DNA of 58,042 nt from an uncultured Gemmatimonadales bacterium (GTDB taxonomy: Bacteria > Pseudomonadota > Gammaproteobacteria > Pseudomonadales > IMCC2047). Made by a program: the position numbers and the translations under genes. The stretch covers positions 1-58,042 of the forward strand of contig CAXMOT010000106.1 of NCBI GenBank assembly GCA_964195105.1, written 5' to 3'. Positions 8,025 through 50,501 of the stretch are shown piece by piece. The stretch's first letter is position 1. Each line of letters opens with the position of its first letter. The notes beneath the pieces were generated by a model. It was given only the letters and a program-made list of their open reading frames with translations. It was not told the DNA's origin and searched no databases.

Positions 8025-10796
8025 ATGATATCAACGATTAAAACCAGGTGTTTCATCGCCTGGCTCGTGATTTTCCTGAACCTGTCGCAGGTAATGGCAG
8101 ATGAACGGCCGCGCGAGTTTGATATCCCGTCCCAGGCGCTTGACGTTGCCTTGTTGATATTTTCGATCCAGGCTGACCTGGATGTCGTTGGCATGACTAC
8201 GGCTCTGCGTCCGCTTGTATCACCCGAACTGCACGGCTCCTATACCAACATCCAGGCCCTCGAAATATTGCTCGCAGACAGCGGGCTTGAATATCGCTTT
8301 TCCGGGCCGCAGCAAATCGCTATTTTTGTACCCGAAGTCGTCACCCCGGAGATTGTCGAACAGCCGGAATCGATTCCGTTTCTGGAAGAGGTAATTGTGC
8401 GTGCGACTCGACGTCCAACCAACCTGCAGGATACCCCTATCTCGGTTACCGCGTTCAGCCAGGCTCAGTTGGATCGGAATCTGGTGAAAGATTTACGAGA
8501 TATCACGGATATGGTACCGAGCCTGGAATTGACTAATAGCGGGTCCCAGTCGGCAGTACTAGTGCAGTTGCGGGGTGTCGGCTCGACTAATATTACCGAG
8601 ATTGCCGATGGGCCGGTGGCAATACACGTCGATGGCGTATATTCGCCAAGATCACAGGGCGCGGCAGCATTACTCTATGATGTCGAACATGTGGAGGTAT
8701 TACGAGGACCGCAAGGCACCTTATTCGGGCGTAATTCTTCGGCGGGAAGCATTAACATATACAACAATATGCCGCAGCTTGACGCCTTCTCAGCAGCGTT
8801 AAACGCCAATCTCGGCGACTTCGATCACAGGTCAATTCGAGGCTCAGTAAATCTCCCATTCGACGACCAGTTTGCCCTTCGCATAGCCGGCGCGCTTGAC
8901 AGGCATGATGGTTATACCGAGCTATTGGATAACTATGTGGGGCTGGGGCCGCAATACCCGGCTATTGGTGATCAACTAACGGATTATCAACAGGCCCTGG
9001 ACGTTAACAATCAGGGTCCGGAGGCAAACGACCAGACGGGTGTTCGTGTGACCGCATTATGGCAACCCTTTGACCAGCTGCGGATTCACACGACAGCAGA
9101 GCGATATATCGACAAAAGCACCAGCGTGGTAGAGCTCGATCCGACGCTCGTGGAGCGTGGGCAACGAGCGACGGTTTTGGATAGCCCGGTGTTTATGGAT
9201 TTAACCAATGATGTGCTGAGAACGCAGGTTGATTATCTGGCCACTAACGGAGTTGGGTTTCGTTATCTGCTTGGCGTATCTGAAATGAGTCGCAGCCAAT
9301 CCTTTGATGCTGACTTTGGTCGGGATGGCAGCTTTGAACAACAGCGCACCCATAGCTCGGAATTCGATTTTTATTCCCATGAAATCCAGCTCCGCAGCAG
9401 GGATAATGCGCGCTTGACCTGGATCGTAGGCGGTTATGCTTCCCGGGAAAGAAACCGGATTGTATTCGCGGTCGACCAACAGAATACCGGTGGAAACCGA
9501 TCGCCGGAAGGCGCGACGAGTTTTATCAGCGACGATCCGGGAGCGGCGGTTTCGTTTGCAGTACAACCCGATCGCCGGGTGGATTCGCTCGGCATTTTTG
9601 CGCAGTCGATATACGCGATAAACGACCGCAGCCGCGCGACACTGGGTATAAGGTATACCGAGGATACTAAATCTGATCGAGGCGGCCGGGCATTAAATTG
9701 CAGGGTTACGTCCGTTCTTGGGCCCTATCTCGAACCGGGTTCGATTGGTCCGGGAGCCCCGGATCCAGACCAGGTTTTTGCCGACGCAGGCGCTAGCGCC
9801 GCGATTGCAGCGGGATTGCCCTATGATGGTGGTACCAATGAGGGGATTGGAGACCAACCGTGCTGGGCACGTCAGGTGAATGATTTTAAGAAGACCTGGG
9901 ACAACACCAGCGGCCTGATTCGTTATGACATGGACCTGGGCAAGGATGCAATGTTTTATGCGTCACTGGCTACGGGTTTTAAGTCAGGTCATATACAAGA
10001 TGCGGGCAACTCAGCAGACCCGGAGACTGTTATTAACTACGAACTGGGCCTTAAGTCGCAATTGTTTGAAAATACTATGCGTTTTAATTTGGCGGCGTAT
10101 CACGCGGACTATGATGACTTGCAGTTTTCCCAAGAGGATAGATTCGACACTGACGGCGACGGGATAGGGGACCAGGGCGGTAGTACTGTGGTACGCAACG
10201 CCAGCAAAGCGACAATCAGGGGGCTGGAACTGGAGCTTGAATGGGCCATGACCGAGCGTGACCGGTTGCAGGTAGTGGGAACACTAATGGCAGCGGAATT
10301 TGATGATTTCGAAATACCTGATACGGTTTTCGGGGACTTGTTTAATCCCTTTGTTTCGCCCGAGTCTTCATCGAACCTGGACCCTGTGGATTTGTCAGGT
10401 AATGCTCCGCCCAGAACACCTGATTGGAAGTTTACATTTTCCTATGAACATGATTTTGTGTTTTCTTCGCTAACGCTAACGCCACGAGCGCGAGTCACCT
10501 TCTCCGACGAGTACTTTCTGGATATTTATAACCGTACCGATCTGGAAGCTGACGTCTTTGCTGACATTCCTAATGGTGGGCAGGACCTGGCTCTGCAGGA
10601 TTCCTACCATACCCTGGACCTGAGTCTGCGGCTCACACCACGATCCAGGCGCTGGCTATTGGAGGGTTATATCAGCAACGCCACGGATGAAACGGTTAAG
10701 GAATCTTCGGGCAACTTTGTTACCGAGAATGGTTTCGTGGCGGTTTATTCCCCACCTCGGCGGATGGGATTGAAACTCAGCTACCGTACGCCCTAG
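8025..10796 (+). CDS. TonB-dependent receptor with N-terminal STN signalling domain (TonB-dependent transducer)
   Basis: Signal peptide from ATG 8025 (MISTIKTRCFIAWLVIFLNLSQVMA). STN-type extension (FDIPSQALDVALLIFSIQADLDVVG...LEILLADSGLEYRF), plug motifs (EEVIVRATRR...DTPISVT...VEVLRGPQGTLFGRNSSAGSINI) and a long barrel follow. The track ORF begins at an upstream TTG (7974). The C-terminus ends ...LKLSYRTP, and its stop codon lies inside a MITE end. Confidence 0.9.
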   Translation: MISTIKTRCFIAWLVIFLNLSQVMADERPREFDIPSQALDVALLIFSIQADLDVVGMTTALRPLVSPELHGSYTNIQALEILLADSGLEYRFSGPQQIAIFVPEVVTPEIVEQPESIPFLEEVIVRATRRPTNLQDTPISVTAFSQAQLDRNLVKDLRDITDMVPSLELTNSGSQSAVLVQLRGVGSTNITEIADGPVAIHVDGVYSPRSQGAAALLYDVEHVEVLRGPQGTLFGRNSSAGSINIYNNMPQLDAFSAALNANLGDFDHRSIRGSVNLPFDDQFALRIAGALDRHDGYTELLDNYVGLGPQYPAIGDQLTDYQQALDVNNQGPEANDQTGVRVTALWQPFDQLRIHTTAERYIDKSTSVVELDPTLVERGQRATVLDSPVFMDLTNDVLRTQVDYLATNGVGFRYLLGVSEMSRSQSFDADFGRDGSFEQQRTHSSEFDFYSHEIQLRSRDNARLTWIVGGYASRERNRIVFAVDQQNTGGNRSPEGATSFISDDPGAAVSFAVQPDRRVDSLGIFAQSIYAINDRSRATLGIRYTEDTKSDRGGRALNCRVTSVLGPYLEPGSIGPGAPDPDQVFADAGASAAIAAGLPYDGGTNEGIGDQPCWARQVNDFKKTWDNTSGLIRYDMDLGKDAMFYASLATGFKSGHIQDAGNSADPETVINYELGLKSQLFENTMRFNLAAYHADYDDLQFSQEDRFDTDGDGIGDQGGSTVVRNASKATIRGLELELEWAMTERDRLQVVGTLMAAEFDDFEIPDTVFGDLFNPFVSPESSSNLDPVDLSGNAPPRTPDWKFTFSYEHDFVFSSLTLTPRARVTFSDEYFLDIYNRTDLEADVFADIPNGGQDLALQDSYHTLDLSLRLTPRSRRWLLEGYISNATDETVKESSGNFVTENGFVAVYSPPRRMGLKLSYRTP

Positions 10797-10971
10797 GAGC
10801 CTGTCGGGATTAGGTGATCGTAACGAGGGGAAGTCCGATTTGAGGCAGATTATTCGATTATTGAGGCGAATAGCCTGCTATTTAACGAGAATAATCGAAA
10901 AATCTGACCCCCCTCTATCACGAGAGCGGCTTTTCTGCAGTAGATTAACCCTAAATCCGACAGGCTCCCAG
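10793..10971. mobile_element. MITE-like 179-bp palindromic repeat, copy 1
   Basis: About 87% identical by eye to the reverse complement of 50261-50439. Terminal inverted repeats are CTAGGAGCCTGTCGG... at the left and ...CCGACAGGCTCCCAG at the right. The two halves are imperfectly self-complementary along the whole length. No ORF. Confidence 0.8.
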
Positions 10972-11213: not shown

Positions 11214-11325
11214 GGTGACTCTCGCCGGTCCCCTCGCAATGATTCGTTGTGAACTCCGCCAGGCCTGGAAGGGAGCAACGGTAACAATTGAATTGTGTGC
11301 CGGGGTGTGGCTGGTGGGAGTTGCC
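11214..11325 (+). ncRNA. ffs: signal recognition particle RNA (4.5S RNA)
   Basis: CCGCCAGGCCTGGAAGGGAGCAACGGTAA...GTGTGCCGGGGTGTGGCTGGTGGGAG matches the E. coli 4.5S domain IV pattern (CCAGGUCAGGUCCGGAAGGAAGCAGCC...GUGUGCCGGGAUGUAGCUGGCAGGG). The 5' GGTGACTCTC pairs with the 3' GGGAGTTGCC. The position directly upstream of dnaX is the common arrangement. Confidence 0.85.
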
Positions 11326-14402: not shown

Positions 14403-15548
14403 TTGACAGAAAGTTACGCTATACCCGCCTATACGGTTGTCGAAGAAGATGAATTGCTGGAACTGCTGGTAACCCAGTGGCAAGACCTGCGTGTTATTGC
14501 CCTCGATACCGAGTTTATCCGCACCAATACCTTCTATCCGCGTGCCGGGCTTATTCAGGTCGCGACCGAGGATGCGCGCTTCCTGATCGATCCGCTGGCC
14601 ATTCGTGATGTCGAGCCGCTCAAGGCGCTGCTGCAGAACCCGCAGATTATCAAGGTACTGCACTCCTGTTCAGAAGACCTGGAGATGTTCGACAGCTACC
14701 TGGGCATATTGCCGGAGCCGATTTTCGACACCCAACTCGCCGGAGCCTTCCTGAACCGGGGCTTGTCGGTGAGTTACAAGAATACCGTGCTGGAGATGTT
14801 CGGCGAGGACCTGCCCAAGGGTGAACAACGCTCCGATTGGTTGCAGCGCCCGTTAACCAATAACCAACTCGACTACGCCGTGCTGGACGTTGAATTTCTG
14901 CTCGATATCTATGTAGAGCAGCGCACCGCACTGGAGGAATCCGGCAAGCTGGGCTGGCTTGAAGAGGAATGTAAGCGGTTGCTGGCGAAGCAGCGCGCCG
15001 GCGTGGTGCCCAGCGAGGCCTATGCCCGCGTCAAGTCCGCGTGGCGTCTTAAACCGCAGCAACTCAGCGTGTTACAACGCCTGGCGCAATGGCGTGAACA
15101 GGAGGCGAAGCACAGCGATATGCCGCGAGGATTTCTGTTGCGGGATCCCGCGTTGATGCAGATATCACAGCAGCAGCCGGATTCGATTGCGGACCTGAAA
15201 CTGGTGGAGGGCATTCACCCCAGGATTATTCGCAAATACGGCGACCGGATTTTGAGCCTGGTCGAGCAGGACAATGCTGAAGAACTGTTCAGCGAGCTGC
15301 GTGGTCCCTTATCGCGTTCCCTGGGTGAGCATGTGAAAACCATCAAGAGCTGGATTAACGCACAGGCTGCGAAGATGGATATTTCCCCGGAACTGATGAT
15401 AAATCGCAAGGGTATTGAGACGCTGGTGTATAGCCTGGTTGAATCCGATGAGTTTGAGTTGCCGGCGGACATGAGCCTGTGGAAGCAACAGGCGTTTGGC
15501 AACGAGTTACTCGAACTACTCAACGGCATAAAGGAGCGATTGGTGTAG
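14403..15548 (+). CDS. rnd: ribonuclease D
   Basis: DEDDy 3'-5' exonuclease motifs (IALDTEF...LHSCSEDLE...YAVLDVEFL) followed by an HRDC-like region. TTG start. Confidence 0.9.
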   Translation: MTESYAIPAYTVVEEDELLELLVTQWQDLRVIALDTEFIRTNTFYPRAGLIQVATEDARFLIDPLAIRDVEPLKALLQNPQIIKVLHSCSEDLEMFDSYLGILPEPIFDTQLAGAFLNRGLSVSYKNTVLEMFGEDLPKGEQRSDWLQRPLTNNQLDYAVLDVEFLLDIYVEQRTALEESGKLGWLEEECKRLLAKQRAGVVPSEAYARVKSAWRLKPQQLSVLQRLAQWREQEAKHSDMPRGFLLRDPALMQISQQQPDSIADLKLVEGIHPRIIRKYGDRILSLVEQDNAEELFSELRGPLSRSLGEHVKTIKSWINAQAAKMDISPELMINRKGIETLVYSLVESDEFELPADMSLWKQQAFGNELLELLNGIKERLV

Positions 15549-15803
15549 TATCCTGTATAAAATGCGCATATCAGCAGGTCGTCAAGCGGTTAGCTGGTAG
15601 GCGCGCTTGCGCAGGAATAGTCAACTCTTTCAAGCCGGCGCAACACCGCAGATGACCGCTTGCCGGCCTGCCCGAAGGGAGTCTCTTAAATTTGCCATGG
15701 CGGTGTTGCAGCCCTTGCCAAGGGAGCGACCATTGCCTGCGGACTGCGTCTTGCCATGACAAATTTATGAGACTCTGAAATGCGTATTTTATACAGGACA
15801 CTA
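15549..15803. repeat. structured intergenic element, copy A (candidate ncRNA or structured mobile element)
   Basis: Fills the whole rnd-ycgL spacer. A 24-bp closing helix pairs 15551-15574 with 15775-15798. An inner 22-bp helix pairs 15679-15700 with 15754-15775 and encloses a core (15711-15760) that is 39/47 identical to 39926-39976. Other helices covary with copy B. Confidence 0.8.
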
Positions 15804-15808
15804 CACTC

Positions 15809-39271: not shown

Positions 39272-39751
39272 ATGGCTATACAAGTAGGGGATTCGATTCC
39301 TGCCGTAACACTCAATATCATGACACAAGAGGGGCCTGCGCCCATTACTACTGACGAGATTTTCAGTGGCAAGAAGGTTGTCCTGATTGCCGTACCGGGA
39401 GCCTTTACACCAGGCTGTTCACAGGCACACTTACCGGGTTATGTGGTCAACGCCGATGCCATCAAGGCAAAGGGCGTAGATACGATAGCGTGTGTGTCGG
39501 TTAATGATGCATTCGTAATGGGTGCATGGGGAACGGCTCAGAATGCTGAAGAGATATTGATGCTGGCCGACGGGAATTGCGAATTCACCAAGGCCGTTGA
39601 TCTTGTGCTGGATGCGTCAGGGTTTGGAATGGGTATGCGTTCGCAGCGTTACTCTATGATCGTTGAAAATGGACAAGTGACGGTTCTAAACGTAGAGCCC
39701 GATGCCGGGGTTGATGTTTCCACTGCGGAAAACATAATGGAAGCGTTATAA
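39272..39751 (+). CDS. peroxiredoxin (Prx5-type)
   Basis: VVLIAVPGAFTPGCSQAHLPGYV. GGAG precedes ATG 39272. Confidence 0.92.
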   Translation: MAIQVGDSIPAVTLNIMTQEGPAPITTDEIFSGKKVVLIAVPGAFTPGCSQAHLPGYVVNADAIKAKGVDTIACVSVNDAFVMGAWGTAQNAEEILMLADGNCEFTKAVDLVLDASGFGMGMRSQRYSMIVENGQVTVLNVEPDAGVDVSTAENIMEAL

Positions 39752-39755
39752 GGAT

Positions 39756-40024
39756 CTGGTACTCCGTCCCCTTGATACTTGCGGATACAGCGCTGCTGTG
39801 GTGTTTCGAAACAAGGCACAGCGTGCAGGGAATGGTTACCCCCTTCCCAAACGCTGTAACGCAGTGGCGGGACACCACAGCAGCGCCCTGTGGGTTGGCG
39901 TGTCAGCGTCCATGGACAGCGTTGCGTCTCTTGCCAAGGGAACGGCCATTGGCGGCGAACCGCGCCTTGCCATGAACGCTGATGCACCAACTGAATTCGT
40001 AATTATCAAGGGGACGGAGTACTA
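39756..40024. repeat. structured intergenic element, copy B (candidate ncRNA or structured mobile element)
   Basis: A 22-bp closing helix pairs 39756-39777 with 40003-40024 (one G-T pair). Helices 39791-39804/39872-39885, 39850-39857/39916-39923 and 39903-39915/39970-39982 sit in the same topology as in copy A. The core 39926-39976 is shared with copy A. Confidence 0.8.
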
Positions 40025-40025
40025 G

Positions 40026-40059
40026 TATTGAGGTCGAAGGGATCCCTTCGACCTCAATA
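40026..40059. terminator. perfect 34-bp palindrome between convergent genes (terminator-like hairpin)
   Basis: TATTGAGGTCGAAGGGA|TCCCTTCGACCTCAATA, 6 nt past the stop of the minus-strand RRM gene. There is no clear U-tract on either strand. Confidence 0.5.
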
Positions 40060-40065
40060 AGTTTA

Positions 40066-40338
40066 CTACCTGCGTCCGCCCTTTCCACCACGCTTGGGAC
40101 GTGGCTTCTCTTCCTGAACTTTCAGTGATTGGCCTTTGTACTCAGACCCATCAAGTCCTGCCATCGCGGCACGAGCTTCATGACCTTCCATGTCTACGGT
40201 TGCAAAACCGCGGCAGTTGCCACTAAATACATCCATCGCGATTTTTACACCGCGTACCGTGCCAAACTGCGAAAACAACTCCTGCACATCCGCTTCTCTC
40301 GTTTCCGGTGCCAGGTTTCTTACAAACATGCTCTTCAT
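40066..40338 (-). CDS. RRM-type RNA-binding protein
   Basis: RNP2 MFVRNL and RNP1 RGFATVDM, with a Gly/Arg tail. Confidence 0.88.
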   Translation of the reverse strand: MKSMFVRNLAPETREADVQELFSQFGTVRGVKIAMDVFSGNCRGFATVDMEGHEARAAMAGLDGSEYKGQSLKVQEEKPRPKRGGKGGRR

Positions 40339-50233: not shown

Positions 50234-50260
50234 GGGCTGGGCCTGTTGGTAATTTAGGGG

Positions 50261-50439
50261 CTAGGAGACTGTCGGACTTAGGGTTAATCTACTGCGGAAA
50301 AGCCGCTCACGTAATAGAGGGGGTCAGATTTACCGATTATTCTCGTTAAATAGCGGGCTATTCGCCTCAAATAATCGAAAAATCCGCTTCAAATCGATCT
50401 TTCCCTCGCTACGATCACCTAAGTCCGACAGCCTCCCAG
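50261..50439. mobile_element. MITE-like 179-bp palindromic repeat, copy 2 (inverted relative to copy 1)
   Basis: Reverse complement aligns end to end with 10793-10971. It lies 28 nt upstream of the DHA2 MFS start codon and 62 nt downstream of the CoA-transferase stop. Confidence 0.8.
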
Positions 50440-50501
50440 GACCTAGTGTAAAGCCAATCACTCCTGGGAGATAGGCAGAATCGCCGGCCTTGGCGGGCGA
50501 T

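Follow-up and report, generated by a model that had tools for sequence, protein, structure and literature searches.

A strongly folded two-armed repeat downstream of a peroxiredoxin gene is most probably a non-autonomous transposon of the IS5 type

Directly downstream of a peroxiredoxin gene in the window (the whole stretch of 58,042 nt of DNA that was analysed) lies an extensively paired sequence, here called copy B, of which a second version, copy A, is present in the same window. The initial annotation had offered three roles for it: a structured RNA derived from a 3' untranslated region, an element that inserts at gene ends, or a structure formed by single-stranded DNA. The question raised by the locus is which of these it is. 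Its parts are the following, in window coordinates.

39272-39751, plus strand: prx, peroxiredoxin gene of the Prx5/AhpC-TSA type, stop codon TAA at 39749-39751 (from the list of open reading frames)
39756-39790, plus strand: 5' arm of P1 (left terminal inverted repeat together with the CTG beside it)
39757-39758, no strand: 5' junction dinucleotide TG, corresponding in degenerate form to the TA found beside most family members; empty allele at this site, GGATTTAAATATTG
39759-40022, plus strand: the mobile element proper, copy B, 264 nt, GTACTCC...GGAGTAC, with a two-armed ('dimer') architecture
39791-39885, plus strand: hairpin of the left arm, with P2 (14 perfect bp) as its foot and, at the apex, the core's reverse complement in degenerate form
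39886-39894, plus strand: mini-hairpin CCC-TGT-GGG, on which the dyad of the element is centred
39895-39990, plus strand: right arm hairpin (P3), helices 7-10, with the conserved core at its apex
39930-39975, plus strand: conserved core CTTGCCAAGGGAACGGCCATTGGCGGCGAACCGCGCCTTGCCATGA, near-invariant in 44 diverse members
39991-40025, plus strand: 3' arm of P1, the right terminal inverted repeat, then TA (40023-40024) and G
40026-40059, no strand: perfect 34-bp palindrome, pre-existing, between the convergent prx and RRM genes and outside the element
40066-40338, minus strand: gene for an RRM-domain RNA-binding protein, convergent with prx (from the list of open reading frames)
15543-15806, plus strand: copy A, of another subfamily, ends GTGTAGT...ACTACAC, in the rnd/ycgL stop/start overlap

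The identical 159-aa Prx protein encoded on related contigs matched the Pfam AhpC-TSA/Redoxin families, and Pfam RRM_1 was matched by proteins identical to the RRM protein of the window. Copy B sits in the 3' untranslated region of prx, whose stop codon lies 5 nt before P1. The rnd (RNase D) stop codon overlaps with copy A, and 3 nt separate the end of that copy from the ycgL ATG, confirming that both copies stand at the stop codon of a plus-strand gene.

P1 proved to be a real helix, but its 3' arm had been placed one base off: in the original register (39756-39777 with 40003-40024) only 7 Watson-Crick pairs are formed, whereas with the arm at 40004-40025 there are 21 Watson-Crick pairs and one G-T over 22 bp. 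The helix extends to 35-nt arms in copy B (39756-39790 and 39991-40025, 86%) and has 32-nt arms in copy A (91%). P2 and P3 of copy B were paired as described (14 of 14 and 12 of 13 positions, respectively, the latter with one C-A), and the architecture is indeed the same in both copies, with exactly 200 nt between the P1 arms in each. The shared core occurs exactly twice in the window, at 15714 and 39930, against 0.02 occurrences expected by chance. The palindrome at 40026-40059 is perfect, as had been noted, and its sequence is unique in the window; it contains no T-run and was not called as an intrinsic terminator. When folded as RNA, copy B reached -165.3 kcal/mol on the plus strand (z = -11.5) and -146.6 kcal/mol on the minus strand (z = -10.6), and copy A gave z = -10.4 on either strand.

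The prx/RRM intergenic region of relatives showed that copy B is an insertion. Four contigs encoding an identical RRM protein (L163-L165, from relatives 85-95% identical, and L166, 99.85% identical on the RRM side) carry the prx stop, then GGATTTAAATATTGAGG and then the unchanged palindrome; their spacer is 49 nt long, none of the four has the P1 arms, and TTAAA stands where the filled site holds 270 nt. As these empty sites lack the P1 arms and keep the palindrome, P1 is the terminal inverted repeat of the element and the palindrome is native. The junction of copy B reads GGAT-TTAAA-TATTG when empty and GGAT-CTG[...]TAG-TATTG when filled, with no clean TA duplication despite the near-identity of L166. 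Empty junctions were also found for copy A, in L174 and L175, where the rnd stop and ycgL start of the relatives overlap (..TTATGA..).

Two further differences were seen at this locus. In contig L158 (MAG GCA_964196395.1), 99.9% identical to the window, copy B is present without its entire left arm (the equivalent of window 39791-39880); the deletion is precise and bounded by direct repeats of ACAGC at the P2 foot, and it is either a real slipped-strand event that turned a two-armed form into a one-armed one or an assembly collapse. At window 40060-40070, compared with L163-L166, the insertion has put CTAGTAC in place of an A/T-rich stretch (ATTTAAAT) 3' of the palindrome (RRM-gene strand), a change that may alter 3'-end formation of the RRM transcript.

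The family to which the two copies belong is large. The core pattern matched 38 metagenome contigs, and a slightly looser version matched at least 119 genome contigs, of which a family HMM confirmed at least 83 and rejected 36 as chance. Among viral contigs, four pattern matches contained no family member. Copy B itself matched the family HMM at 1.7e-66, and its boundaries were set from the family alignment and the outer stem. Among the matches listed, the hosts were mostly Gammaproteobacteria (Sedimenticola, Chromatiales, Thiotrichales, Pseudomonas/Stutzerimonas, Azotobacter and Halomonas), together with some Betaproteobacteria (Nitrotoga, Rhodocyclales) and one Sphingomonadales MAG. At least 12 copies each were counted in a Chromatiales MAG and in Sedimenticola hydrogenitrophicus, one MAG carried five copies at different loci with a median identity of 99.6%, and some genomes held copies that were 99-100% identical. 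Many contigs break off within the element, the behaviour to be expected for a repeat. One metagenome contig (L031) contains a 127-nt perfect inverted repeat centred on one element, a likely artefact of the assembly folding back at the palindrome.

Most members have a length of 266-270 nt, within a range of 262-276 nt, and 44 diverse ones aligned nearly without gaps. They fall into about ten subfamilies with unrelated P1 sequences, copy B belonging to subfamily b and copy A to subfamily h, but across subfamilies they share the apical core of the right arm, its degenerate reverse complement in the left arm and the central CCCnnn(n)GGG (kept in 44 of 44 members). Owing to this two-fold symmetry, the family HMM matches both strands. 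In S. hydrogenitrophicus a one-armed form of 161 nt was found, which is one long hairpin with the core at its tip. The P1 arms, initially regarded as unique, turned out to be subfamily-specific terminal inverted repeats; such arms recur in other genomes with unrelated flanks, as CTAGTACTCC... does in L008 and L037.

No protein is likely to be encoded by the element, as no frame was consistently open or conserved across the 44 members. A minus-strand product (..NGRSLGK..) was considered, since two variable core positions are third codon positions, and was ruled out because all six frames are open to a similar degree and none has a conserved start or stop. An association with one gene family (CheB/ABC/Flg clusters) was likewise discarded, as it reflected generic domains or orthologous sites and no fixed partnership. 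Literature searches by core and terminal-repeat strings returned unrelated primer matches only, and with no Rfam model, RefSeq plasmid annotation or sequence-based literature match, the family appears to be undescribed.

In Pseudomonas, the element splits coupled gene pairs, namely wspE/wspF (L062, L015, L024, L067) and flgH/flgI (L023, L100, L138); the same junction is occupied in several species, and the upstream stop codon consists of the junction TA plus the first G of the element. A further copy lies on a plasmid of P. aeruginosa PA83 (L172, 4001-4269). The wspE/wspF, flgH/flgI and PA83 copies are all unannotated in RefSeq.

The ends of the members point to the way in which they move. The 5' end reads NTA|G in 29 of 44 members, with a pyrimidine as outer base in 19 of these, and the 3' end reads C|TAN in 31 of 44, with a purine as outer base in 29, giving YTA|G...C|TAR for the family; the first base of the repeat is G in 43 of 44. 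CTAG was present at 12 of the 44 5' ends and at 18 of the 44 3' ends. A TA duplication was seen directly at the wspE/wspF junction of P. delhiensis (L062), which reads GGAGGTGCG-TA-[GGGTCGG...CCGACCC]-TA-AGATG, against GGAGGTGCA-TA-GTGCGG at the empty counterpart in P. nitroreducens (L190). For the one-armed form, the suhB/secF spacer of S. hydrogenitrophicus (L085) showed a 3-bp TAA duplication, CCGC-TAA-[el]-TAA-AGTTT, where relatives (L182/L186) have a single triplet, GCGC-TCA-AGTTT; all six monomers with TWA on both sides had it in direct orientation (TAA/TAA or TTA/TTA), never inverted. Thus, the two-armed form duplicates 2 bp and the one-armed form 3 bp. It is the rule for IS5 elements in ISfinder that T(N)A is targeted in a YTAR context and 2-4 bp are duplicated.

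AAGGAG or GGAG was found 6-12 nt before the 3' end of the element in members of subfamilies a and b (3' ends of L028, L001, L097 and L008; window 40014-40019 in copy B). Pairing within P1 sequesters this motif, which faces the stop codon of the junction, and one may speculate from this arrangement that a ribosome terminating at the 5' end of the element could unmask a Shine-Dalgarno-like motif for the downstream gene.

An autonomous relative was found for one subfamily. The outer 18-19 nt of subfamily d (TAGGGTCTGTTGACGTTT) are identical to the ends of an IS5-family insertion sequence on plasmid pAcX50d of Azotobacter chroococcum, which is bounded by TA|GGGTCTGTTGACGTTT...AAACGTCAACAGCCCC|TA and whose transposase matched Pfam DDE_Tnp_1 and DUF4096 and NCBIfam IS5_3 (260 bits). 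A 317-nt MITE of Catenovulum has the same 20-nt ends and an unrelated interior, indicating that the ends are a transposase module. No autonomous IS with the GTACTCC... ends of subfamily b or with those of subfamily h was found, including among the loci compared; the terminal repeats of subfamilies a and c gave, against plasmids, a solo repeat-like stretch in Microbulbifer without a partner and otherwise chance matches. An all-against-all comparison of the open reading frames of the element loci, in which a transposase beside the elements was sought, yielded only housekeeping orthologues. On pAcX50d itself (L194, 2632-3956 and 4694-5018), an IS4-family IS is inserted in the IS5-family one, and a second IS4 copy abuts its right end.

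Taken together, copy B is most probably a non-autonomous DNA transposon (a MITE) of the IS5 or Tourist-Harbinger type, with the P1 arms as its terminal inverted repeats. The element, of 264-270 nt, carries no transposase gene, terminal inverted repeats are present in every member, and the family is multicopy and polymorphic, with 2-3-bp duplications at T(N)A/YTAR and ends that start with G; the duplication is found for the family, the junction of copy B being degenerate (TG...TA), and an autonomous IS with the same ends is seen for subfamily d only, over 18-19 nt. Of the three roles first suggested, insertion at gene ends is thus the one borne out, by the empty sites, the multicopy family and the T(N)A duplications. 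Copy B would be moved in trans by an IS5-family DDE transposase, which would cut T(N)A in a YTAR context and duplicate TA, or TNA for the one-armed form, as judged from subfamilies other than that of copy B. Insertion into the TA of a stop codon would recreate TAG, with the element supplying the G, as is seen directly at wspE/wspF; the stop is recreated because the terminal repeats begin with G, which would let insertions at gene ends and at stop/start junctions of operons survive, and such survival could explain why both copies in the window abut a stop codon. Copy B itself was inserted between the prx stop codon and the native palindrome. As the palindrome is reached only by reading through the element, copy B is probably transcribed as part of the prx 3' untranslated region, where it is predicted to fold into a very stable three-way junction.

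Not every property is what such an element would show. Unusually for a MITE, conservation is higher in the internal core than at the termini, and the narrow length range (262-276 nt) and the compensatory changes in 66 of 82 pairs exceed the constraint expected from neutral MITE decay; in addition, the copy B junction is unclean, subfamily b yielded no autonomous IS, and the core shows an orientation bias of 14:2. The conservation of the core over the ends, the bias, the duplication sizes and the junction leave room for an effect at the RNA level, or of tolerance, at operon junctions.

These properties are the strength of the main rival, which we consider distinctly unlikely: that the family is a functional structured RNA domain acting in cis in the transcript, with mobility only as its means of spread. 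Such a domain could stabilise or insulate the 3' end, or it could loop out as a spacer so that the stop and start codons of coupled genes stay adjacent, with the core as a protein- or RNA-binding module. Covariation is indeed very strong. In the consensus of 44 sequences, which has the 82 pairs mentioned above, 90.2% of all cells were paired, against 63% in shuffled alignments and about 38% with the partners slid, and 1037 cells with double changes were counted against 364 in shuffles. Covariation was seen in 30 of the 31 pairs of P1 and in helices 2-5 of the left arm, and a covarying helix of 5-7 bp (alignment columns 185-190/217-221) closes the core around an invariant 30-nt loop. In a set of 71 independent sites, the core strand of elements between co-directional genes was the mRNA strand by 14:2 (p = 0.004); a replication-coupled strand bias was rejected, since the GC skew of the flanks was 39:28 and not significant. 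An RNA domain would also fit the retention of copies at wspE/wspF, flgH/flgI and other tight junctions in several Pseudomonas species and, in some subfamilies, the GGAG motif opposite the junction TAG. Against it, the element also lies between convergent and divergent genes, its insertion is polymorphic in the population, and no Rfam match was obtained: a scan of the whole window at the gathering score, as had been proposed, gave none at this locus, and permissive searches of Rfam 15 with copy B (E <= 10) and two other members (E <= 1) gave only chance miRNA-type matches.

The two strands also folded equally well. The consensus energy was -94.0 kcal/mol on the plus strand and -97.0 kcal/mol on the minus strand, the mean minimum free energies were -168.6 and -166.0 kcal/mol, respectively, and the plus strand was the more stable in 24 of 44 members. 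The excess of G-T pairs that had been taken to favour a plus-strand RNA holds for copy B but not for the family, in which the pairs common to the structures of both strands include 86 G-U and 72 A-C; the raw count of 254 G-T to 83 A-C in the plus-strand structure is an ascertainment effect, as the minus-strand prediction gives 200 to 94. A 3'-UTR-derived structured RNA is therefore not supported, the unit being an insertion that folds equally well on both strands. Within subfamilies, stems vary less than loops and compensatory double changes are common. Orthologous Pseudomonas copies differ mainly by single changes that break pairs, and their core changes as fast as the background. The equal folding of both strands and the decay of orthologous copies argue for selection during propagation and against an RNA gene in place; the numbers are small, but this fits selection acting while the element spreads rather than on an RNA function where it resides. 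It seems to be during propagation, and not in residence, that the twin hairpins and the apical core are maintained; they are probably cis-features needed for, or tolerated in, its mobilisation as a fold-back structure.

The pairing of the pseudoknot that had been described for copy B (39850-39857 with 39916-39923) is present in 8 of 8 positions, but a true pseudoknot was rejected: in the register of the family (symmetric AACRC/GYGTT motifs) the long-range pairing is 84.5% in the alignment against 81% in shuffles, so that it is mostly conserved sequence with modest covariation, and the left strand given for copy B lies 8 nt upstream of that register, in a left-arm helix of the consensus. The apparent pseudoknot reflects the two-fold symmetry of the element, since the left-arm apex repeats the right-arm core as a degenerate reverse complement.

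A second rival, and a highly improbable one, is a fold-back element of single-stranded DNA in which a structure-specific enzyme recognises the core hairpin and not the ends; an HUH/RAYT-type or IS200/IS605-type transposase or an integron-like recombinase would be candidates. It would account for the conserved core hairpin next to terminal arms that are free in sequence and yet paired, for the strand-symmetric structure (copy B folded as DNA at -83.5 kcal/mol, z = -9.6) and for the proliferation of a one-armed form with a single core hairpin. It is contradicted by the direct target duplications of 2-3 bp, which HUH single-strand transposons and REPINs are not known to make, by the base before TAG (C in 12, T in 7, A in 5 and G in 5), which leaves no conserved GTAG tag, by the lack of attC R''/R' core sites on direct reading of the sequence and alignment, by the absence of a replication-strand bias and by the identity of the ends of one subfamily to those of an IS5-family DDE element. 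Finally, that P1 is a prx terminator hairpin split by a shorter inserted repeat, as the long perfect palindromes at gene ends of this genome (40026-40059) might suggest, is refuted to near certainty by empty sites that hold only TTAAA, with no trace of P1 arms, and by the recurrence of P1-type arms beside unrelated flanks.

A further, rather unlikely possibility is that the 45-nt core and its closing helix are a functional module that was captured repeatedly by different IS5-type terminal repeats and has spread through Alpha-, Beta- and Gammaproteobacteria. Such a module might serve for binding, or might act as a small structured motif of RNA or single-stranded DNA. Selection for one orientation at operon junctions would then follow from the folded element preserving or tuning the expression of flanking genes, and the family would be a mobile, structurally constrained regulatory cassette rather than junk DNA.

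Among the closest known systems are IS5-family MITEs such as MITEPsy1 of Pseudomonas syringae, a Tourist-like element of the PIF/Harbinger-IS5 superfamily and putatively IS5-derived. It, too, lacks a transposase gene, ends in inverted repeats and inserts at CTAG/YTAA-type sites, where short duplications of T(N)A are reported (PMC3189936). In contrast to MITEPsy1, which has 100 nt and a simple interior, the present family has about 268 nt, two internal hairpins and a core that is more conserved than the ends and common to subfamilies with unrelated terminal repeats. The bcr1 repeat of the Bacillus cereus group is also small and mobile, has direct repeats on either side and shows compensatory base-pair changes by which a cruciform-like fold is preserved (PMC3184786), but it is a Firmicutes element of about 155 bp with 5-bp duplications and no sequence relation to this family. 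ERIC (RU-1) and Correia/NEMIS elements resemble it as palindromic intergenic repeats, often at the 3' ends of genes, that are co-transcribed as long hairpins, and ERIC can change the stability of the upstream mRNA (PMC3184786); ERIC and bcr1 provide cases comparable to effects at operon junctions in reviews of MITEs (PMC3184786; PMC10969869). Both ERIC and Correia/NEMIS, however, are single long hairpins of 100-160 bp from enterobacteria and vibrios or from Neisseria, without sequence similarity to this family, which folds as a three-way junction and occurs in Gamma- and Betaproteobacteria and in some Alphaproteobacteria. Correia elements are TA-flanked.

The TA/CTAG pattern of the two-armed form is also compatible with MITEs derived from IS630/Tc1-mariner, as IS630 duplicates 2 bp, TA, within CTAG (PMC2577343). 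The one-armed form, unlike IS630, duplicates 3 bp, and no IS630-family partner was found, the only matching autonomous element found being of the IS5 family. With REP and REPIN sequences the family shares short, multicopy, palindromic hairpin repeats in Pseudomonas and its relatives. In REPINs a GTAG/CGTC tag is conserved, mobility depends on a RAYT and target duplications are not known to be made, whereas here the base before TAG is variable and target duplications are present in the family. An integron attC site was rejected on account of the TAG...CTA ends, the length of about 268 nt and the housekeeping flanks; attC sites are defined by R''/R' (RYYYAAC...GTTRRRY), 57-141 nt and a cassette array next to intI.

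The family therefore belongs to the MITEs, of IS5/Tourist-like type, and does not represent a novel class of RNA. A pseudoknot-like pairing, covariation in every helix and a z score of -11 were all shown by a mobile repeat, so that, for a transposing unit that folds on both strands, covariation by itself can be misleading; since the signal of a complex structured RNA stems here from a mobile repeat, no RNA gene should be annotated. The family breaks metagenome assemblies and splits translationally coupled genes (wspE/wspF, flgH/flgI), and being polymorphic within populations it could serve as a strain marker. Its core and orientation bias make it a tractable case for asking what the spread of a MITE, or its tolerance in operons, needs beyond terminal inverted repeats.

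The window also contains a second, TA-flanked MITE-like repeat family, at 10793-10971 and 50255-50445, with two copies of about 180 nt in inverted orientation that are 81-94% identical and have terminal repeats of GGAGCCTGTCGG(G/A)(A/C)TTAGG. The first of these copies lies about 250 nt upstream of a gene for the bacterial small SRP RNA (11223-11319, plus strand; Rfam RF00169, 70.2 bits).
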